From NCBI GenBank assembly GCA_964637135.1, contig CAZWTX010000001.1, forward strand, positions 124,001-188,000: a DNA stretch of 64,000 bases, read 5' to 3'. The notes under the pieces are model-generated. The model saw only the letters and a list, made by a program, of their open reading frames with translations. It was not told the origin of the DNA and did not search any database. Source of the DNA: an uncultured Methanospirillum sp. (GTDB lineage Archaea > Halobacteriota > Methanomicrobia > Methanomicrobiales > Methanospirillaceae). Positions 4,428 through 44,008 of the stretch are shown one piece after another (position 1 is the stretch's first letter; the number at the start of each line of letters is the position of its first letter). The position numbers and the translations under genes are program-made.

Positions 4428-4543
4428 CCGGCAATCAGATCATCTGTTCGGTTCCCTATCCGGTCAGAACGGCAACAATGAGGATAAATCGGATAGGTGA
4501 ACCCCCTTCATTTATCAGATACCAGATACAATATACTAGGGTT

Positions 4544-4615
4544 GCCCCGGTAGGGTAGAGGATATCCTAGAAGCCTCCGGAGCTTTTGACCTGGGTTCAA
4601 GTCCCAGCCGGGGCG
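4544..4615 (+). tRNA. tRNA-Arg(CCG)
   Basis: Acceptor GCCCCGG/CCGGGGC, anticodon loop CTCCGGA, T arm CTGGG-TTCAAGT-CCCAG. Confidence 0.95.
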
Positions 4616-4616
4616 T
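4602..4616 (+). repeat. attL core (tRNA-Arg 3' end)
   Basis: TCCCAGCCGGGGCGT, identical to 11262-11276. Confidence 0.9.
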
Positions 4617-4722: not shown

Positions 4723-5850
4723 TTATCGCCCGCCAGTCCGATTAAATACATATCCCAGTTTCTGGGCTGCAGACCAGTTTTTGTCAGTAGCACAGGACAC
4801 CATGCAGATCCATCCATCCCGGTCCGTAAACGAGTATTGGATCTCAATAATACGAAGTTCATCTTCTGGGATACCTGGGAACCCGACAAATTGTTTTTTC
4901 TGTATGTATTTCAGATCCCAGTGGTCAAAAAAGACATATTCATAGGTCGTTGACGGAATCCCTACCAAACCAAATATTTTTTCAGTTTTTGCCTTCACTG
5001 ATTCTTTTGCTTTTGCCTCAGTGGTACCCTCCGGCAACTGATACTCGTAGGGATAAATTCGTTCAACAGTGGTACCAGTATAGGTCTCCGGGAAATATGC
5101 CCCTTACCGTGTCTCTGAACCGTCGCTTGCAGTAAGTATTCCCTCTACATATATTCGGTTATAGTATTGGGACTGATCGTCCTGTTTCCGGAACGTACGC
5201 CCATGGGGGTTAACAAAATCGATCATTCGGTCAGAACACGTTAGTACTAACGTCGGGGGGAGGTTACAGGAGGTATTCAGGTGATCGATGGTAGCCAGGT
5301 AACTCTTTGGTTTCCAGATCCCCTCTTCCAGTACCCAGTCGTCATAATGGAACAGATCCAGTTCAGCACAGATATTGTCGATTTGGGTCTGGATCGTGGC
5401 TGTACATGAAACCTGTTCAAATGGCTGATACGGGCACTCATCTTTCCCCCAGTTCTCAACTGACTCCTCCCAAAACCCCTTCTCAAGTCCACAGACAGCC
5501 ACCCCGCCGGGCCATATCAGACGGTTCAGGTACGTGATCGGATCCTCAAACTGTTGTCCGGAGGTGTTCTTTAGTGCCCGGTCCTCCAGTTTCGTCAGAG
5601 GTCGCTGAAGGTACATGCCGTGAGAATAGCCGGACACTACAACACAGTCTTCTGCATTATCTGACATCACATGCTCGGATTTGACGGTCTCACCGAGAAA
5701 CAGGCAGTTCCCATCCCTCTCCAGGTATACATCTTCCCATTTATCAGGGATCTCGGAATCCCCATCAACCTCCATCTGATAACTATGACAGGCATCTGAG
5801 ATCGAATGTCCAAACTGATATGAAAATGCCCGGTACTGGTTCAGGTTGAT
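4723..5850 (-). pseudogene. Interrupted, 5'-truncated gene, possibly a viral structural (tail/baseplate-like) protein
   Basis: ORFs 5104-5775 and 4723-5037 share one frame separated only by TAA at 5104-5106. The frame stays open upstream until it runs into the IS fragment. The viral function is a guess. Confidence 0.55.
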
Positions 5851-6056
5851 AGCTCTGCTATACGGGCTTTCAGTTGGGCGTTTTCTTCTCGCAACTCGGA
5901 GATGATTCGATTTTGATTTTCAATGATGGTTAGAAGAGATTGAATATATGATGCAGGATCTAATTCGGGGGTAGTGTGATTCTGCTGATTTCCAGTCACT
6001 AATTGTAATTATGACGTCATAGTACTAGGATCTTGCGGTTGATCCTGAACAGTTAC
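5841..6056 (-). mobile_element. IS66-like left-end remnant with the 5' stump of a transposase
   Basis: Terminal GTAACTGTTCAGG (minus strand, 6056-6044). GTG ORF 5999-5841 encodes a coiled coil, IISELREENAQLKARIAEL, typical of IS66 transposase N-termini, then stops. Confidence 0.65.
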
Positions 6057-6075
6057 AAATGATTTAGAATTAATC

Positions 6076-6450
6076 TCAATCTGAAATTCTTTTAGGATCT
6101 TTTGGTGGAAGTTTCTTTTTTGCTTCAGCATATTTTTGTTCAAAGAAATCAAATCCCTTCTCATCGGTTTTTGTAAATTCATATGTTCCCCCTTGTCCTT
6201 GCAATTCTATAGGCTTTGTAAACGTGTATTTAAATTCATATTTTTTATCCTTCTCATCTATAAGATCCATCGTAAAATCACCATAATTGAAGGGTGATTC
6301 TGTTTCTTCCCAGAATCCTGAAAGTTGAGTTCCCTGAGAGATAGCTATGAGAAGTGTTCCTTTACCTTCATAATATCCCCTAATCCGACCATTTTCGTAT
6401 TCTAGTAAAAATAGGGGCTGATTTCCTCTGTATATTCCGGACCAGTACAT
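6076..6450 (-). CDS. Hypothetical protein, beta-rich
   Basis: Intact 124-aa ORF, AT-rich, GAGG upstream; no motif recognised. Confidence 0.6.
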   Translation of the reverse strand: MYWSGIYRGNQPLFLLEYENGRIRGYYEGKGTLLIAISQGTQLSGFWEETESPFNYGDFTMDLIDEKDKKYEFKYTFTKPIELQGQGGTYEFTKTDEKGFDFFEQKYAEAKKKLPPKDPKRISD

Positions 6451-6472
6451 GGAGATTCAACCTCGAAAAAAA

Positions 6473-6635
6473 TTAACAGGCTTTATTGTCCTCGCAAGCA
6501 ATCCCATCTTTATCCTTATCCAACCCGAATATATCCCCTAATCCCTTCGACAGACAATATTCATAGCATCTCTGAACAGTGCATTGATTCAAAAAATCCC
6601 CCAATTAACGTCCGGACCATTATTCTGTGTTAGTT
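6473..6635 (-). pseudogene. Excalibur calcium-binding domain remnant
   Basis: Manual translation GPDVN/GDFLNQCTVQRCYEYCLSKGLGDIFGLDKDKDGIACE* with a 1-nt deletion near 6600; contains the DxDxDGxACE motif. Confidence 0.65.
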
Positions 6636-6718
6636 CTTAAAAATGAATAATAGTTACGGAAAGAATTGATCATTATATAAGGAAAGTCAGAGTTATTCAA
6701 AAAATGAGAGAGAAATTC

Positions 6719-6726
6719 AAAAAAAA
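6719..6726 (-). terminator. Oligo-T terminator candidate after the radical SAM gene
   Basis: T8 run on the minus strand ~10 nt after the stop at 6736. Confidence 0.45.
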
Positions 6727-6735
6727 GGATTTTGG

Positions 6736-7833
6736 TTACACTACACACTTTTCGGGCCACAATTTAAACGCTTCATCAAATCCTTTTGCTGAAGTGAATT
6801 TATTCACCAAGCCTTCATATGGAGGAAATGCACCACCACGTCCGATTACTCTTCGAGCATCAGCAACCATCTCTAACTCATTTTGAGTCCAAAAGGGTGA
6901 GATAAATTTGTTTTTCTCAAGAGCTGTTGATGGTTCATATCTCATCGGATATGATACACAGCCTAATTTTGCAATATCGGTGATGATATCAAAAAAGTCT
7001 TCAGGTGTATCTCCAGAACAACTCACCGGATTGTAAAAGTTGTAAAGAGAATAAAATAGCATGTTTTTCTTTCTTAATCCCGCTGATTCAAATAAATTTA
7101 CTGCTTTTTCGACAAATGGATATTCATCTTTAAAGTCGTAAGCCATCCTAATTAATGGAGTCCGAAGTTCTGATATTAAATTGGCATTTTCCTCATTGAT
7201 TAGTCTTGCATCTAATCCTTGATTAAAATCGATCTTTAAACCGCTTTCTGCTAATATGAGAAGGTTTTTTTCCCAATCAGGAGATGCCAAGAAATTATTA
7301 TCCCATATTATTACTTCTTTATGAGAAGGATGGATAAAATCTCTAATGTCATCAACCGCTTGTCGAATCTGTCCTTCTAGTTGAGGAACAATACAAAAGG
7401 GGCATTTTCGAATACAACCCCTTGATGTGAAAAGTATAGTTTTTTTCCAGTCTTTCCATTTATCCACATTCTTAAGCAGATCATATGAAGGTATGTACTG
7501 TTCTGATTCTTCAAAGAGACCAACATGAACTTCAATAAATGGATATACTTTTCGTAATCTATCAGGCATTATGGAGGCGTATAGACCTCCCACAATCATT
7601 CTTGCATTCGGGAATACAGAATGGTATTGTTCTATGATCTTATGAACTGGTTTCCAAGCATATGTAAATAGAGATGTTATTTTTATAATATCGGGTATGA
7701 AATCTAACGTTTCTTGAAATCCCCTAACTAATTGAACTCTATCCCCATAAGAACGGTGAAAAGAAGCTATTTTCAAGAGCCCCAGAGGTGGGTATTGAGT
7801 ATAGTATTCTGGTTCAACAAGTAAGATATTCAT
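6736..7833 (-). CDS. B12-binding-domain radical SAM protein
   Basis: N-terminal ILLVEP...PPLGLLKIAS...TSLFT...IVGGLYAS (B12-binding-like); TSRGCIRKCPFC (CxxxCxxC); DNNFL and DFNQGLDARL. Confidence 0.9.
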   Translation of the reverse strand: MNILLVEPEYYTQYPPLGLLKIASFHRSYGDRVQLVRGFQETLDFIPDIIKITSLFTYAWKPVHKIIEQYHSVFPNARMIVGGLYASIMPDRLRKVYPFIEVHVGLFEESEQYIPSYDLLKNVDKWKDWKKTILFTSRGCIRKCPFCIVPQLEGQIRQAVDDIRDFIHPSHKEVIIWDNNFLASPDWEKNLLILAESGLKIDFNQGLDARLINEENANLISELRTPLIRMAYDFKDEYPFVEKAVNLFESAGLRKKNMLFYSLYNFYNPVSCSGDTPEDFFDIITDIAKLGCVSYPMRYEPSTALEKNKFISPFWTQNELEMVADARRVIGRGGAFPPYEGLVNKFTSAKGFDEAFKLWPEKCVV

Positions 7834-7879
7834 ATTATAGTTTCTTCATACATACAAATCAAGGATCCGGTGATTAGCA

Positions 7880-9805
7880 TTATTGAATGTCTTCATATTT
7901 TTGTGTATGAGATAGGATATGGAGAAGAAGATCTATTGTTGCCTGAACTTGAACAGTTATTCTCTCCTTTTCTTTCAACGTTAAAGATTCATACCACTTG
8001 AACGACTGTTGTCCTTGTTCGTGTATGTATAAATTCCTTACCATGTCCTCACAAGTATATATAGCCAAACCTAACCGCTGATTTCGATAGGTATTAGAGG
8101 GAGGATTGTGATTTTTTTTCCCAATATTCTCCGGATCAAGAATCAAAATTGGTGGCTTTTCAGAATTTTCAATTTTTTTCCAGCCAAATGCAGCTTTCGA
8201 CAACTCATTCATTGAATCTTCAGTGAGATTAGTTCTTTTTTGTAATTCTGCTTTCAAAATATCCGTAATGGAAATAGCCCATTCTCTCTGACTCTTTTTA
8301 TTGAACCTTTGAAAAGATGCTCGGGTTTCAGGATTAATAGTTGAACGCAAAAGCCTAATATATTCTATATCTGATAGGTAAGTTTCAGGTTCTTCATTTG
8401 GAGAAAAAACCCCATTATTTCCTTCTTTTTCCTCCCTAATATCTGCTTCCTCTTTTTTTCCAACATCATGACCCGATTGTTTTTCATCAGATGAAGAGGA
8501 TGTGATTGTTTCCTGTCGATGAATATTTTGATCAAGCAACAGATCTTGAGCCTTTTGTTGGTTGCCATCAATTTTGTTTTTCAGTGCTTCAGCATTTAGT
8601 CCTTCTGGAAAATGACGAGTACTATCCATTTTTCTGATAATCTTTCTTTTTTCGGAATCATATTTATCTGAATCAATCAATCCTTTTTCATAATCAGATT
8701 TTAGTTTTATTGCCTTTTTATACTGGTTTTTTGTTGAATTATATCGATTAATATTTTCTAATTTAAGGATGAATTGCCCAATTTGATTTAAAAAATCCTC
8801 AATATGAGGATAATTATATTCAAAGTTATTTCTGGCAGTATTTTCTTTAATTTGTGAAGATACAATATGAATTTCTCCATATTGCCAAAAATGATAACTA
8901 CCGTTTGCAAGATTCTTTACAAAATCGCGATCCCCGATTGTAAATCCTTTTTTTCTAAAATATATCCCTCCATTAGGTTTTGGAAGAGCTACTGAATCCT
9001 TTGAGGAAATAAACCAAGCAACAGCTAATAATTCTCCAGTCTCATTATCTTGCGGATAATAAAATTTGCGGCAAATAATCGCATCTTTAAAGAAAAGACT
9101 TTCATCTGTAGGTGGTCTAAAAATTTTTTCTTTATTATATGTTATTGAAACATCTGGAATTGTTACCTGATTATTTTTTAGCCACTCATTAATTTTATGA
9201 GCATTTGAAAATTTAGACTCGTTAATTGAAGCTGGAACAGTTTCAATTAGATAATCTTTAATCTTCTGATTATTGTACACGTTAATTAATGTTCGAAGTA
9301 TTGATTCTAATCTAATAATTGTATAATGAGATTCCTCATATGATTCATCATTAGACAGATCTAATTCAGAAATTTCAGAAGTTGTTTGAGACAATACCTC
9401 AATTGCACTGAAATCTCCTAAATATATATTACGTAAATTATCACAGTCAATTGAAATTAAAAACTTAGGAGAATTACGCTTTTTAGTGATTATTTGTAGT
9501 TTTTTTGATACGGCAACTCCACTCCAAATACCGATTCCCCTCCATCCGATATTTGATTCATTTTTACTTGATTTACCTATACTAAGAGCATTAATCAATT
9601 CCTCTTTATCCATCCCATTGCCATCATCTTCAATAACTAGGGTTTTTTCATTTTCAAATACCACAGATATATTTTTTGCCCCAGCATCGACACCATTTTG
9701 AATGTATTCTCGAATGCAGTTTAAATTCCCGTCATACAAACCCTCTGTTATAGCTTGAATAATTCGGGCCCCGATTGATTCTTCAGAAAATTTCATAGAT
9801 ATCAA
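7880..9805 (-). CDS. GHKL (Hsp90/MutL/MORC-type) ATPase with C-terminal HEPN-like domain
   Basis: N box IREYIQNGVDA, G1 IEDDGNGMD, G2 IGWRGIG; S5-like region GIYFRKKGFTIGD...GEIHI...ENTARNNFE; charged linker; C-terminal RNLYIH. Start TTG 9805 or ATG 9796. Confidence 0.85.
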   Translation of the reverse strand: MISMKFSEESIGARIIQAITEGLYDGNLNCIREYIQNGVDAGAKNISVVFENEKTLVIEDDGNGMDKEELINALSIGKSSKNESNIGWRGIGIWSGVAVSKKLQIITKKRNSPKFLISIDCDNLRNIYLGDFSAIEVLSQTTSEISELDLSNDESYEESHYTIIRLESILRTLINVYNNQKIKDYLIETVPASINESKFSNAHKINEWLKNNQVTIPDVSITYNKEKIFRPPTDESLFFKDAIICRKFYYPQDNETGELLAVAWFISSKDSVALPKPNGGIYFRKKGFTIGDRDFVKNLANGSYHFWQYGEIHIVSSQIKENTARNNFEYNYPHIEDFLNQIGQFILKLENINRYNSTKNQYKKAIKLKSDYEKGLIDSDKYDSEKRKIIRKMDSTRHFPEGLNAEALKNKIDGNQQKAQDLLLDQNIHRQETITSSSSDEKQSGHDVGKKEEADIREEKEGNNGVFSPNEEPETYLSDIEYIRLLRSTINPETRASFQRFNKKSQREWAISITDILKAELQKRTNLTEDSMNELSKAAFGWKKIENSEKPPILILDPENIGKKNHNPPSNTYRNQRLGLAIYTCEDMVRNLYIHEQGQQSFKWYESLTLKEKERITVQVQATIDLLLHILSHTQKYEDIQ

Positions 9806-9828
9806 GCCACTTTTCTATTACCTTTAAC

Positions 9829-9835
9829 ATTTAAA
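9829..9835 (-). promoter_or_regulatory. TATA box candidate for the GHKL/radical SAM pair
   Basis: TTTAAAT on the minus strand ~24 nt before TTG 9805. Confidence 0.4.
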
Positions 9836-9981
9836 CCCAAAATCAGAAATCCTGTTCAATTGGATACTCTGATCATCATTTACCACAAAGGAAAATTACC
9901 TTAATCAACTAAAAAGTTGACGAAATTGTAATTGTTAGACATTTAGGGAAAAAACCCGCTCTCTCACGAAATAAGGTAAAA

Positions 9982-11262
9982 TTAATTAATTCCTCCCATC
10001 TTTATCTCCTTTAAATCCTCAATGATATCATCCAGAAATCCGGGGTCATGAGAGCATTCTTTAATCAATTGCCGAATGTTCTTTGTTTTTTCTGTTAATT
10101 CTGTTCCACACAGATTACAATACCGGGATGTAGGGGAATTGTGATTGTGACATTTCGGACACATCCGCCCAGTAATTCTCCTCTCCTGTTTCCGGTTCTC
10201 CTCATCGGTGATTATCCCAGCATGTTTCAAGAGGATCCGATCCTGCTGGGTCGGAGACATCCGAATATATGTCCGGATCTGTTTCGTATTCTGATTCCCC
10301 CATAAAAGTTCAACGACTGAAGCAATCGGAAGACCCTGTTCGATAAGGTGAGTTCCCCGAGACTTCCGAAAGAGATGGGTTGTAATTTTTTTCTTAATTC
10401 CTGCTCTTTGAGCTGCTTTTTTGAAGATCTTCAGAACGGCTGCATAGGTCAGGACATCACTCCGTTCGGAGAGGAAAACATAGGTCTCACCCTCCGGAGT
10501 TCCTGGAAAGTTGTCCCGCCACATTGCAAGATATTGTGAGGAAGCGGATGGAGTAAGACTAGCCATCCGGATCTTGTTCGTTTTCGTATCGGTGATTCGG
10601 AGCCTGGCCCCATATTCATCCCAGATAGCATCCCTCCAGCGAAGCCTTCCGATTTCCCCAATTCTTGTTGCAGCCTCATAATGGACGGCAATCAGGGCCC
10701 TATCTCGGATAGCAGTTCTACCTTCACAGGCAACCAACATGGAGATGATCTCCTCAGGATTGAGAATCTCGTCCGGGTGAGTTACATCCTGATTTTGTGC
10801 GGGAGGCTTGATATCTTTGATTTTCTCTTTATTCAGGTGGGGATTGATCCCATTCTCGATCATCCAGAGTAAAAATCGGCGAAGAATAACGACATAATCA
10901 TATTTGGTGTTCTGTGCAAACTCCTGACCCTTCTGATTCTTCGATGAATTGAGTGATTTATGCCGGAAAAAAGATCTGCCATTTTCATCGATTGGTACTC
11001 GACGGAAATCAGATTATTTTTTTCTCCATCCGAGAAGGGTGGTGGATATTTTCATTTCCCGGTTCTCACTTAACTGGTGAAGAGCGATCATTTCCGAGAT
11101 ATAGTTCTGAATGATTTCAGAATCTTGCGCGGATATTTGGCCCTTTTGCATGGCTTTTTCAAAGGAAGATTTAGTGTATTTTTTTCCAAAGTGAAAATTG
11201 ACTGCCTGCCTGACCTTGTATATAAGATGCCATGTCAGAGCCTTAACTCTCTCGTCACGCAT
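9982..11262 (-). pseudogene. Tyrosine integrase (archaeal type with C-terminal zinc ribbon), interrupted
   Basis: Catalytic motifs ATRIGE (R), DTKT (K), HLFR, LWG, RTY (Y); C-terminal CPKC...CNLC. ORFs 11014-11262 and 9982-10863 are in the same frame, separated by TAA at 11014-11016. Confidence 0.85.
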
Positions 11263-11276
11263 CCCAGCCGGGGCGT
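11262..11276 (+). repeat. attR core
   Basis: Duplicate of the tRNA-Arg 3' end. Followed by a TGACAG/CTGTCA hairpin (11281-11301) and a T-run, the likely original tRNA 3' flank. Confidence 0.9.
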
Positions 11277-25790: not shown

Positions 25791-26036
25791 TTATATCTGC
25801 ATACTTACTTCGCCTGCAGCAAGAGGTTTCATGCATAAACTTCCCTTTCGTGCTTCTTCTATGATAATATCCATTTTTCGGGAAATTTCCGGAGTAAAAT
25901 ATGCCTCATTACACCGCTCACACACATATGCTGGAATATCCTTGATAACTACAATTTCATCGTCAACTCGTGCCATGAATTCAGTGTGACCTTCTTTCAG
26001 TGTCCCTTTGCAAAAGGAACATCTTTCAGGTTTCAT
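25791..26036 (-). CDS. YgiT/MqsA-type zinc-finger protein (antitoxin-like)
   Basis: CSFC...VIKDIPAYVCERCNEAYF. Confidence 0.85.
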   Translation of the reverse strand: MKPERCSFCKGTLKEGHTEFMARVDDEIVVIKDIPAYVCERCNEAYFTPEISRKMDIIIEEARKGSLCMKPLAAGEVSMQI

Positions 26037-26335
26037 TCTCTTCTCCTCTCATTATAGGTAATCCAATGGGTATCATCTGGATAGTAACAGGTGATTATTC
26101 GAAGGTGATCATCACATACACCAATTACAACATGCAACATTATATCGGTTGTCTCAATACCCATTAGAACTGATGGGCAGGGCTCATCATCCGAATATAT
26201 TTCAATTATCTCTCCGGTTAATATCGCCAGTTCTATAGCACCTGTTGTTATGCCACGTTCTGCCATCCTGAGCCTGGCATGGGCAGTAATAAGGTATTGA
26301 TCTGAACGGATGTATGACCGAATCTTTTCAATCAT
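26033..26335 (-). CDS. DUF4258-family protein (putative toxin)
   Basis: ITAHARLRMAERGI, GEIIEIYSDD.PCPSVL, LHVV...IITCYYPD; ATGA overlap with the YgiT-type gene. Confidence 0.85.
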   Translation of the reverse strand: MIEKIRSYIRSDQYLITAHARLRMAERGITTGAIELAILTGEIIEIYSDDEPCPSVLMGIETTDIMLHVVIGVCDDHLRIITCYYPDDTHWITYNERRRE

Positions 26336-27126
26336 CGATAATAAGCCTCTTAATGAGAGGTTCAATCTGTTGTATTGAGATAATATGATTGTCGTTTACT
26401 CATTACATACAGTCAGAAAATATTGAAGACTAATTCTGGGTATCCATACATTAGTCTCTGAATTGATACAGATCCCGTCGGGATATTCACTTCTTATCGG
26501 AGCACACTGGTTATGACAACCTTCAGAAGATAACACATATGTGCCGTTATAGGCATGGGAGACACAGAGGACTGATTTGATTTAGTCCTCGAAAATTCCT
26601 GGAATATCGCTCCGGGTATTCCCCCCTATTGTAGACATTTACCGCTGACTTTGTTCGTACACGTCACCCATTGGAACGTTGAATTCACCGCCTCTCTCGT
26701 TCCTTTGATTAATATCAGATTTTTGACATTATGGCGAAATACTATTGTATTGATGCAATTGCAATTCTCTCTATACCGATAAACAACGTTTAAATTGGTA
26801 AAAGAAGCGCTCAATCGTATTAATCATGCAGACTGGAAGAATCGCAAAATAAGTGATATCAGGTATTCCGGGATTAATGAAGGGCACGAGTAATGGTGTG
26901 ACTATTGGCGAAGAGTAATGTGTAACTCAAATACAAACTCGTTCTTCTCGTTGATTCGCGATTAGATAATAGATATTGATTCTAATGGAAAAAATTACAT
27001 CCCCTTCTTTTTTCGGGTGTCTTGCAACTGGACAATCCTTCATTCATCTGCCCGGACCTGGGTAAAAGCATTCTCCGGATATGACGGAGGTGTGATCTCC
27101 ATGCACTCAGGGAAGAGAACCGGGGG

Positions 27127-40462: not shown

Positions 40463-41029
40463 ATGCATCTTTTCCTGACCTGCGGACAGCATCCGGTTCA
40501 TACAACCCGTCTCGAACTCATCCCCATGACGGCTGATACCTGCCGGTGGGAACTCGGAAAGGATTATCGTTCCCTTGCATCCTGGCTTGATGCAACCGTT
40601 CCCCCCTCATGGCCTCCTGACCTGCTGGATAAGGATGCTCTCGAGCAGTTCATGGCGATGATCTCAGTTCCCGGTTCTCCTGATTTTCATTCATTTTACT
40701 GGATAAAAAAATCAGATCCTGAATCACCCGGACGGATCCTTATCGGAAGCGGGGGCTTTTTTGTTCCCGGGGATGGGATCCCTGAAATTGGCTACTCTGT
40801 TCTCGAATCGTTCCAAAACAGGGGATATGCATCAGAAGCGGTCAGGGGGATGCTCAGTTGGCTCTTCTCGGAGACCGGTGCTGAGCATGTCCAGGCAACA
40901 ACCTTTCCTGATTTCATTCCGTCAATTAAGGTTCTGACTAAAACAGGGTTTACCCGGAACGGAACCGGAGAACAAGAAGGAAGTATCCGGTTCGAACTGG
41001 CCAGGAACACGGACGAATACCGCGCATAA
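40463..41029 (+). CDS. GNAT acetyltransferase (RimJ/RimL-like)
   Basis: TTRLELIP, EIGYSV..FQNRGYASEA, SIKVLTKTGF. Confidence 0.88.
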   Translation: MHLFLTCGQHPVHTTRLELIPMTADTCRWELGKDYRSLASWLDATVPPSWPPDLLDKDALEQFMAMISVPGSPDFHSFYWIKKSDPESPGRILIGSGGFFVPGDGIPEIGYSVLESFQNRGYASEAVRGMLSWLFSETGAEHVQATTFPDFIPSIKVLTKTGFTRNGTGEQEGSIRFELARNTDEYRA

Positions 41030-41337
41030 AATTTTTAGTATCAATCGCTATATTCTAATACTATGACTTAAGGTACCAAGTAGAGTTTAAATTCCGCTGA
41101 ATCATAAAACCCAAGGCCTAGATCCATCTTTAAATATCAATCTCTTCTTTCCACCATATAATAACCAAATCGCATCATCTCTAATTTGTTAGAAATTACG
41201 CTCAACTGAAAACCCGTATCGCAGAGAACGGTAGTGATTAGTAACGAATTAATGATATCGTGTACTATACCCCACAAATAAAAATATTATTATATGAAAA
41301 GGGGTATTTGCCAATTATATAAGTTACAAAATGGAGC

Positions 41338-43076
41338 GTGTTGAACATGGTAAACAAAAACAGAATGAAAATCACTCATACTGACTCAATGGACTATAAT
41401 GAACGCGAGAAGACTGCACCAGATAATATTAAGTTAGCACTTGCGGATCTTCGCAAAATGAAAGAGCAGTATGGGTGGACATTTGAAGTTGGCTACACGG
41501 CTGCGATGGACTTTGAGATCGAAAAGATCACTGGATTAGTACTCGATAAAGACTGGCTGAATACAGCAAAAAAGCACAACGAGAGTATAAAACCTGTTGA
41601 ATGGATTCGAAACGTGTTCCAAAGTATATGTGATCCAACTCAACAAAAGTTCGACTGGTGCGATCACAATGGAGTCAGATCGGTACGAGATCAAGGATCA
41701 TGTGGTAGCTGTTGGGCTTTTGGTACAATCGGTGCCTTCGAAGGAAGTTACTCTGTCCTGAACCAAGTTCATACCGAGTGCTCAGAACAGAATCTGCTTG
41801 ATTGTACTGGAGGATCCTGTGACGGTGGGCCTATCAGTTTGGATTATATCAGAGATAATGGGGTCGCCAGGGAGTCTGCCTATCCATATGTGGCAAAGAA
41901 GAATCCCTGTAATACAACGATCCCAAGACCATACAAAGCAGTGGTGTATGGGTATGTTGATGACTCTGATAAGGTTCCATCAGTAGATAAAATCAAGCAA
42001 GCTCTCTGCATGTATGGACCGCTTGCGGTTTGCGTCAGAGTAACCCCTGCATTCAGAGCATATACAAGTGATATCTTCAATGAGAATTCCAAAGAACCAG
42101 TAAATCATGCAGTCACCTTGGTTGGATGGGATGATGCAAAACAGGCATGGAAAATAAAAAATTCATGGGGTACCGGTTGGGGAATGTCTGGTTTCATGTG
42201 GATTAGATATGGAGCAAACAAAGTTGGGACTGCAGCACAATGGATTCAGGCTGTCACAAACACAAAGGTCTCAAATATTGGTGCGTTATCGGATCAAACA
42301 GGATGGGACAAACCGCAGTATTATGAAACAATCCAGAGTGCTGACATTGACGGGGATGGCCATGCTGAAATNNNNNNNNNNNNNNNNNNNNNNNNNNNNN
42401 NNNNNNNNNNNNNNNNNNNNNNNNNNNNNNNNNNNNNNNNNNNNNNNNNNNNNNNNNNNNNNNNNNNNNNNAAACAATCCAGAGTGCTGACATTGACGGG
42501 GATGGCCATGCTGAAATATTCGCACGGGGCGTCAACGGTGTCGGAATCTGGAAGTACAATGTTCAGGGCAATAACTGGAGTGAATTATCTCCTATTGGTG
42601 CGTTATCGGATCAAGCAGGATGGGACAAACCGCAGTATTATGAAACAATCCAGAGTGCTGACATTGACGGGGATGGCCATGCTGAAATCTTAGCCCGGGG
42701 CGTCAATGGTGTCGGAATCTGGAAGTACAATGTTCAGGGCAAAAACTGGAGCGAATTATCTCCTATTGGTGCGTTATCGGATCAAGCAGGATGGGACAAA
42801 CCGCAGTATTATGAAACAATCCAAAGTGCTGACATTGACGGGGATGGCCATGCTGAAATCTTAGCCCGGGGTTTCGATGGTATCCGAATCTGGAAGTACA
42901 ATGTTCAGGGCAAAAACTGGAGAGAGGTATGTCCTATTGATGAAATGAAGGATAATATCTGGGATAAACAGCAGTATTATAAAACAATCCAGAGTATTGA
43001 CATAGACGGGGATGGCCATGCTGAAATCTTATCCCGCGGTGTCTATGGTGGCCTAATCTGGAAGCATAGTATATGA
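41338..43076 (+). CDS. C1A papain-family cysteine protease with C-terminal 57-aa FG-GAP/VCBS-like repeats (spans the assembly gap)
   Basis: DQGSCGSCWAF, NHAVTLVGW, KNSWG. After the gap a continuous frame encodes SADIDGDGHAEI repeats to TGA 43074-43076. Confidence 0.85.
42277..43060 (+). repeat. 171-bp coding tandem repeats
   Basis: ACAATCCA[G/A]AGT anchors at 42328, 42474, 42645, 42816 and 42984. Confidence 0.9.
42372..42471. other. Assembly gap (100 N)
   Basis: Run of N. Confidence 1.
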
Positions 43077-43118
43077 TCCCTATCATTTTTTTGCCAATGA
43101 TTATACGGAGGGGTATGA

Positions 43119-43442
43119 TTGGTAAAAAGATTGGTAGTTAATAAAGATTTTAAAAATCCAGTTGAAGCCAATCTCGGTGATGATATTGAAATCCAGCTTG
43201 ATGAAAATATTAGTACCGGTTATAGCTGGATACTTGAAGAAGGGGATCTATCAATTCTTGAAATGGTGAATTCATCGTATGTTGACTCGCAAGGAACGGC
43301 ATTAGGTCGGCCCGGGACGCGAATTCTGCATTTTAGAGTAAAGTCGCGAGGGATACAGCAGATTGTCCTCATATTACGTCGAGTGTGGGAACCTCTGGAA
43401 AAGATAGCGGAAATTATTAAAATTGAGGTAAGGGTTGAATAA
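43119..43442 (+). CDS. Chagasin-family (I42) cysteine protease inhibitor
   Basis: LDENISTGYSW (NPTTGY-like), LGRPG, RRVWE (RPW-like); GGAGGGG upstream of TTG. Confidence 0.85.
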   Translation: MVKRLVVNKDFKNPVEANLGDDIEIQLDENISTGYSWILEEGDLSILEMVNSSYVDSQGTALGRPGTRILHFRVKSRGIQQIVLILRRVWEPLEKIAEIIKIEVRVE

Positions 43443-44008
43443 TTGAGGGAGTTTTGTCAGATATATATTGAAAATAGTATCATTTCCTGGCTCTGTTGAG
43501 AGCCTCAAGAAGAAACAAATAATCTAGGTCTTAACGCTCCTTGTTTAAACATATCTAAACAAATCAAGGGATTATCTTTTTGTAACGGTTCAACCAGTTT
43601 TGTTCGCAATAGAGGGGATGAAAGGATCCCCTTCGAACACCTTGCGAAGAGATCCAAACACAGGCACTTCATTGTTTTTCACGGTTGAAATGTATCCCCT
43701 GACCCTACAGAACTATTCATCCCCTCTGCCACTCACAAAATAGATTGCACGGTTACTGATGCACTCCCCGCAAGTAATACTCACCCGTGCTCATTCATCA
43801 TCCCGGGGGAACGGCAGCCGGTCACCGTCAATCATAGCCGGTCCGGGGTACCTTTATTAACATCCGGTCGTGTCTTATATTCTGGTACCGGGAATTACCT
43901 GGGATATCAGGGAACAATCCGTCGTGAGGATAAAGTCCCATGACTGCACACGACCGGATTCCTGATCATGAATACCTCCCTCTTATTTCCGGATTCAGGG
44001 GTGACGGG

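Follow-up and report, generated by a model that had tools for sequence, protein, structure and literature searches.

A mobile two-gene cassette in a Methanospirillum tRNA-Arg island, pairing a B12-fold radical SAM enzyme with a GHKL ATPase, as a candidate modification-and-guard defence system

The 64,000-nucleotide stretch of DNA analysed here (the window; contig CAZWTX010000001.1, positions 124,001 to 188,000, of an uncultured Methanospirillum sp., a methanogen) carries a cassette of two genes, at positions 6736-9805, that encode a GHKL ATPase with a probable HEPN ribonuclease tail and a radical S-adenosylmethionine (SAM) enzyme with a B12-binding fold. The cassette is a conserved, mobile pair that is moving among archaea, a real system that has apparently not been described before. 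Its products are proposed to form a complex that acts as a modification-and-guard defence system, in which a DNA-marking enzyme is bound by a PrrC-like guard nuclease, a reading to which we give even odds (about 0.5). Should the enzyme mark DNA, the epigenetics of anaerobes would gain a new chemistry, and the distinction of self from foreign DNA a new basis; the mark might escape standard methylome calling and could hinder the transformation of methanogens, and PHROG 9298-type radical SAM proteins would have a first function. Within a wide family that extends across archaea, bacteria, and viruses, the pair is the smallest form, and its occurrence as two genes in named genomes makes both the chemistry and the guard model testable.

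An earlier reading made from the sequence alone (the sequence-only reading) had treated the two genes as a unit, and their linkage in other genomes bears this out. Searches driven by the ATPase fetched 122 loci with 109 family members, 85 at 95% identity (median pairwise identity 41%), of which 68 extended at least 1 kb downstream and were taken as informative and 17 were set aside. All 61 informative loci with an intact ATPase C-terminus have a nearby radical SAM gene of the same family, directly downstream in 53 and next to a sister module (DGQHR-type, long-form, or other) in 8; three loci with a divergent ATPase tail each have a radical SAM gene, and the four that lack one all have a truncated ATPase. 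From the enzyme side, a survey of 72 loci included 20 informative genes of clade A, the branch of the family tree that holds the window enzyme. The ATPase lies upstream of 15 of these and is missing from five, four of them intact (two representing one syntenic event) and one 5'-truncated; a further partial radical SAM gene, 59% identical and outside the tree, is placed after NurA-HerA (L321; L numbers are our locus labels). Thus the enzyme occurs alone and an intact ATPase was not seen alone, an asymmetry of loss that fits the addiction suggested earlier by the retention of the pair. The partners co-vary in pairwise identity (rho 0.74 over 39 pairs, 0 of 60 permutations), and at five places in the ATPase tree an ATPase-HEPN gene stands beside a sister-clade module after loss of its own partner, which fits dependence on the product of the enzyme more than on one protein.

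Among 401 genomes of the class, compared under records that include Methanoregula, Methanoculleus, and Methanocorpusculum, the radical SAM enzyme occurs in 26 and the ATPase in 12, with none in the 24 other genomes of the host's own genus. Nine of the ATPases found there are close relatives, four having an adjacent clade-A gene, three facing a DGQHR-type module, and two being broken; all seven intact genes therefore have a radical SAM partner, and neither of the genomes with a broken copy, each a single contig (87% and 91% complete), gives a radical SAM match. Methanohalophilus euhalobius is a named genome with the pair. That the genes are island cargo unconnected with defence, modifying tRNA, a lipid, or a cofactor, is scarcely credible in view of this sporadic occurrence and of neighbours that are defence and mobile genes with no recurring metabolic partner.

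The larger gene encodes a GHKL ATPase, as had been recognized. The N-terminal domain matches HATPase_c_3 (E 4e-19) and has the ExxxNxxD and DxGxG motifs and a glycine-rich ATP lid, with E33, N37, D40, G64, G87, G90, and G92 invariant in 75 aligned rows and D60 kept in 73; an S5 transducer domain follows, and the fold resembles that of Hsp90. Relatives had to be gathered with an alignment, a DNA-pattern search with the single protein giving only distant GHKL proteins, and a PDB sequence search returned nothing significant for the ATPase, the radical SAM enzyme, or the C-terminal profile. The earlier HEPN call survives in part. The window protein has an RxxxxH motif (R590-N-L-Y-I-H595), and ESM Atlas matches to RNase LS, Ymh, and Csm6 HEPN domains (scores 0.79-0.85) are leads only. 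The Pfam family PF09509 gives no match in the window ATPase and matches 1 of 41 family members at E 0.0028, and no stand-alone relative of the domain was found among proteins of 74-249 amino acids (one match, E 0.36). Across the family, the arginine is present in 3 of 75 members, the asparagine in 69, a lysine four positions after the arginine site in 69, and the histidine in 70.

An arginine missing from 72 of 75 members could mean that the pair performs modification only, the ATPase being a chaperone or clamp whose non-catalytic C-terminal domain serves dimerization or nucleic-acid binding, with restriction supplied by other genes or absent. The likeness to Hsp90 would suit such a role, as would the distant long-form enzymes that adjoin a GHKL ATPase without HEPN and some clade-A pairs that lie beside Pbe or DrmAB genes (L025, L293, and L239). 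This arrangement is nevertheless distinctly unlikely, for the motif asparagine, lysine, and histidine are kept in 69-70 of 75 members amid a mean column identity of 35% in the domain, and arginine and lysine exclude one another (3 arginine-only, 67 lysine plus histidine), as would be expected of an active site. Extra ATPase-HEPN copies also occur next to modules equipped with an ATPase or DGQHR partner of their own (L020, L242, L197, and L098). In two clade-A pairs (L255:5941-7830 and L314:6199-7926), the ATPase has another C-terminal domain, and a C5 methylase is present at both loci.

The product of the smaller gene belongs to an uncharacterized family related to PHROG 9298, which it matches over its full length (E 6e-63). 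Its CxxxCxxC motif (C140, C144, and C147, invariant in 67 rows), radical SAM barrel fold, and N-terminal B12-binding Rossmann domain uphold the earlier assignment to the class B radical SAM enzymes as far as architecture is concerned; the Pfam matches to B12-binding (E 1e-6) and Radical_SAM (E 1.5e-4) are each below the Pfam cut-offs. The closest solved fold is AprD4. The solved B12-domain enzymes AprD4, MgmA, TsrM, and TokK are 13-19% identical to the window enzyme, whose chain of 365 amino acids is much shorter, and no substrate is deduced from them.

Prediction of a complex between ATPase residues 4-638 and enzyme residues 1-361 gave an ipSAE of 0.62, compared with 0.00 for the best of three controls. 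Such a mark was attained for 116 of 157 solved pairs and for 2 of 215 mismatched ones, figures that are only approximate for the alignments of our own used here. At least 47% of contacts were common to the runs, and the partner pLDDT was at least 85. In the predicted interface, the outer face of the GHKL domain (residues 51-55, 101-116, and 148-174) meets the B12-fold domain and linker of the enzyme (residues 24-32, 45-48, 114-118, and 164-170), where S28 (54 of 56) and D118 (55 of 56) are fixed in ATPase-linked enzymes only. Because binding is predicted to occur through the GHKL domain, the ATPase looks like the bound partner of the modifier and not an independent sensor, and the earlier view of the ATPase-HEPN protein as sensor and killer is modified to that extent. 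The position of this interface, on the GHKL domain and not on HEPN, also bears on a toxin-antitoxin or abortive-infection pair that would leave no DNA mark, the enzyme silencing the ATPase-HEPN protein by binding, by methylation, or by an inhibitory small molecule. Such a pair is possible though rather unlikely, as the ATPase has switched to sister-clade enzymes at five places in its tree, and the unrelated effector sets that accompany the enzyme family (Pbe, DrmABC, NurA-HerA, PIN, and DGQHR-HEPN) are explained more simply by a shared DNA mark.

The case for DNA as the substrate is one of genomic context and is taken from sister clades. Eighteen genomes have full-length PbeA: 14 also have DndC, three without DndC have radical SAM and DGQHR genes beside pbeA, and one that is fragmented has neither. 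In six more genomes, for which completeness is not given, Pbe adjoins the enzyme and no DndC exceeds the cut-off. Six DrmA/DrmB/DrmC loci carry radical SAM and DGQHR genes with 0 matches to 19 DNA-methylase domains, and the one generic methyltransferase near a DrmABC locus is UbiE-like. Pbe, Drm, DGQHR-HEPN, or ATPase genes lie near 29 of the 32 DGQHR-type representatives, and other partners of the family are NurA-HerA, PIN with a second ATPase, and a type IIG-like methylase (12 of 72 loci). Viral homologues lie near DNA methylases at 26 of 80 loci, compared with 6 of 77 SSB controls, in a test whose queries came mostly from the test loci, with near-identical matches removed and kin not independent. 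One family that serves many unrelated DNA-directed effectors from the slot of a modifier would most simply be a DNA-marking enzyme. The earlier proposal that the enzyme marks self nucleic acid is thereby favoured by the place of its family among defence genes and in a DNA-modification slot, and the antiviral nucleotide offered alongside it found no support. For clade A, a DNA methylase is present anywhere in the fetched DNA at only 7 of 61 loci, and none was detected in the window island by Pfam, PADLOC, PHROG, and related profile scans.

More tentatively, and at somewhat less than even odds, the radical SAM family may form a third class of DNA self-markers, alongside the methylases and the phosphorothioate and deazaguanine systems, one that writes a cobalamin-dependent mark, serves Pbe, DISARM-like, NurA-HerA, PIN, and DGQHR-HEPN effectors, and has been copied by viruses. 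The window pair would then be its minimal two-protein form, with GHKL-HEPN as both clamp and suicide nuclease and with an arginine-to-lysine migration in HEPN. No characterized counterpart of the enzyme class in such defence systems was found in the literature searched.

Several arrangements in the wider family deserve description in their own right. A radical SAM plus DGQHR module, conserved in methanogens and Bathyarchaeia without DndC or methylase (L089-L104 and L296-L333; e.g., L099:7071-14382), is coupled to PbeA/PbeC, to DrmA/B/C with an unannotated protein of 1,110 aa, or to a DGQHR-HEPN protein of 780 aa. Long-form radical SAM enzymes (530-620 aa) accompanied by one or two GHKL ATPases (L039, L041, L042, L044-L046, L109-L111, and L020) occur in Proteobacteria, Acidobacteria, and methanogens, and these loci also carry a PIN protein or NurA-HerA-like genes. 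The order NurA-HerA, 1,100-aa type IIG-like adenine methylase, radical SAM gene recurs (L330:1108-9149, L332:1824-9095, L302, and L343), and hypermodification of methyl-adenine is possible there. In the cultured Marinitoga camini virus 1 (KP836355; L368:4995-8821), a radical SAM gene 48% identical faces HerA and a Rad50/Mre11-associated exonuclease. A trio of a ParB_N protein, an unannotated 503-aa protein, and the radical SAM enzyme was seen at L292, L301, L307, and L335 (e.g., L301:5450-9059); ParB_N was rejected as a recurrent viral partner, at 8 of 80 loci and 5 of 77 controls.

In the proposed mechanism, the radical SAM enzyme would write a self mark on host DNA, most likely through cobalamin-dependent radical methylation of an unactivated carbon of a base or sugar. 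Its B12-fold domain is predicted to bind the outer face of the GHKL domain, and the bound ATPase, perhaps an ATP-gated clamp on DNA in the manner of MutL and MORC, would help the enzyme to engage DNA while keeping the probable HEPN ribonuclease silent. Unmarked DNA, or viral attack on the complex, may alter the state of the ATPase, whereupon the HEPN domains would dimerize and cut RNA to arrest the cell, on the pattern of PrrC behind EcoprrI. The window copy keeps the canonical arginine of the motif; in its place, most members would use a lysine at position 5. A number of points weigh against this mechanism. The family motif is xNxxKH and not RxxxxH, so the canonical Rx4-6H is not conserved, and the evidence for a Ymh-type HEPN domain, though concordant, is weak and makes the assignment no more than probable. 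Use of B12 is only putative because AprD4, the closest solved fold, keeps the B12 fold and is not known to use cobalamin. Conservation of the whole interface does not exceed the average, and the prediction may owe something to the memory of the predictor, since histidine kinase-receiver complexes join related folds; we know of no solved complex of a like kind. The ATPase tail and the gene after it can be lost together in one deletion, and L273, one of the loci set aside, may be an exception to the dependence of the ATPase. The argument from the PbeA slot is weakened because Pbe modules can also be found lacking Dnd or accompanied by cytosine methylases, according to the main text of the report concerned (PMC10853773).

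PADLOC-DB 2.0 holds no full-length component match for either protein, which agrees with the earlier statement that the pair is not a named system; the best matches of the ATPase cover its N-terminal ATP-binding part only (TmtA, E 7e-7; MzaB, E 0.002), and that of the radical SAM enzyme has E 0.006. On comparison, the design resembles restriction-modification (R-M) with a back-up ribonuclease and falls outside each named family tested. The main text of a 2013 study (PMC3710099) describes GHKL-Ymh HEPN fusions in R-M neighbourhoods as a proposed PrrC/RloC analogue, and that of another (PMC2292703) places paraMORCs in such neighbourhoods. The window ATPase shares with these the GHKL and S5 ATPase, with a probable C-terminal HEPN that is most Ymh-like, and differs in having a radical SAM partner, no DNA methylase in the island, and xNxxKH in most family members; neither main text mentions radical SAM, although supplements could list such a neighbourhood. 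PrrC held by EcoprrI is presented in the main text of PMC3710099 as an NTPase-HEPN second line of defence, and the window protein would work like it as an NTPase-HEPN bound to a self/non-self module; unlike PrrC/RloC, it has a GHKL and not an ABC ATPase, and the island has only the two genes and no hsdMSR. Sister-clade enzymes and their DGQHR partner accompany PbeA/PbeC, as in DndCDE-PbeABCD, or DrmA/B/C, as in DISARM, whereas these loci lack DndC or a methylase and the window pair lacks Pbe or Drm effectors; no radical SAM partner of Pbe modules is named in the main text of PMC10853773.

A comparable arrangement is a three-gene neighbourhood of a PAACC cyclase, an HSP90-like ATPase, and a radical SAM protein, given in one sentence of a 2026 preprint (10.64898/2026.10.19.760177), whose text does not analyse the enzyme. 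It shares the ATPase and radical SAM beside an effector, which there is a cyclase and not a fused HEPN, the radical SAM proteins being compared by description only. A viral contig (L120:1764-6091) has the same layout. There, the radical SAM gene faces a GHKL ATPase together with a protein of 391 aa, cyclase-like by eye with no Pfam match. Radical SAM enzymes are known in antiviral systems such as Ophion, in the account of its preprint's main text (10.1101/2025.09.30.679545), and AprD4-type dehydration chemistry is structurally possible, so that the product might be an antiviral or signalling nucleotide, as for Viperin or Ophion, sensed by the ATPase-HEPN protein. This is very improbable. Ophion as described there has three genes (rSAM, PHP, and PRTase) with no ATPase or HEPN, PHP and PRTase genes are missing from the island and do not recur among the family neighbours, and prokaryotic viperin is a single-domain barrel without the B12-fold domain of the window enzyme. 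Passages of PMC3226654, PMC7641849, and the Tiamat preprint proved irrelevant to the pair, and the literature search as a whole gave no account of it in main texts, although supplements, including that of the ParA preprint, could list the neighbourhood.

The features of the cassette and its island are collected in Table 1. The cassette proper agrees with the sequence-only reading, which had noted two intact, co-oriented, AT-rich genes 46 bp apart (GC 31.8% for the ATPase gene and 35.4% for the radical SAM gene, in a genome of 52.4%), with a TATA-like box upstream and a T8 run downstream. The T8 run is the sole one on the minus strand within 6000-10000. A sigma-70 promoter scan gave a chance-level result, the sigma-70 model being unsuited to archaea. 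The second of the two possible ATPase starts likely applies, as it fits the homologues.

Table 1. Coordinates of the cassette, its signals, and the surrounding island (window positions unless residues are stated)
Feature	Position	Strand	Remarks
tRNA-Arg(CCG)	4543..4616	+	last 15 bp (4602-4616) = left attachment site
IS remnant	5851..6065	-	copies on contigs C30 and C78 and elsewhere in the window
Excalibur-like Ca-binding remnant	6473..6604	-	preceded by stops; six-frame translation
T8 run	6719..6726	-	10 nt 3' of radical SAM stop; candidate archaeal terminator
B12-binding-fold radical SAM gene	6736..7833	-	365 aa
Intergenic spacer, ATPase/radical SAM	7834..7879	-	46 bp
GHKL ATPase + probable Ymh-type HEPN gene	7880..9805	-	641 aa from TTG; 638 aa from ATG 9796
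TATA-like box TTTAAA	9830..9835	-	about 35-40 nt 5' of ATG 9796; consensus match only, weak evidence in AT-rich DNA
Tyrosine integrase pseudogene	9982..11262	-	in-frame stop 11014-11016; 33% identical to intact 436-aa paralogue
Right attachment site	11262..11276	+	15-bp repeat of tRNA 3' end, at integrase start
ATPase layout	residues		GHKL 1-230; S5 transducer to ~354; helical stalk 355-430; disordered linker 433-476; probable Ymh-type HEPN ~480-641
Radical SAM enzyme layout	residues		B12-binding-fold domain 1-110; radical SAM domain with C140xxxC144xxC147

The island measures 6.7 kb between the tRNA 3' end and its copy; the 15-bp repeat alone is at chance level genome-wide (E 0.26), but the copy is located at the integrase start. 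Over most of its length, the island is also covered by contigs from four other runs, in near-identical letters and without listed indels; one of these contigs crosses the integrase stop with no difference. Of the neighbours described earlier as broken, the integrase is confirmed by this stop, when set against its intact paralogue, and the insertion sequence (IS) by its remnant, which we take to be IS66-like from its motif, with copies elsewhere in the genome. Two compensating frameshifts postulated in the integrase were dropped, only the in-frame stop being verified. The broken Excalibur gene is upheld as a remnant preceded by stops, its Excalibur-like label presumably correct from the motif. 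The supposed broken virus-like gene is not confirmed, as open reading frame (ORF) 5104-5775 has no match in Pfam, PHROGs, NCBIfam, PADLOC, or phage genomes, and neither viral nor broken status can be assigned to it. This ORF (223 aa) and those at 4723-5037 (104 aa) and 6076-6450 (124 aa) have no significant family match and no paralogue in the genome. Further AT-rich stretches of the window (39-43% GC) lie at 1001-2000, which contains a tRNA-Thr (1729-1801), at 26001-27000, and at 41001-44000, which contains a diverged copy of the island IS remnant (~41034-41226).

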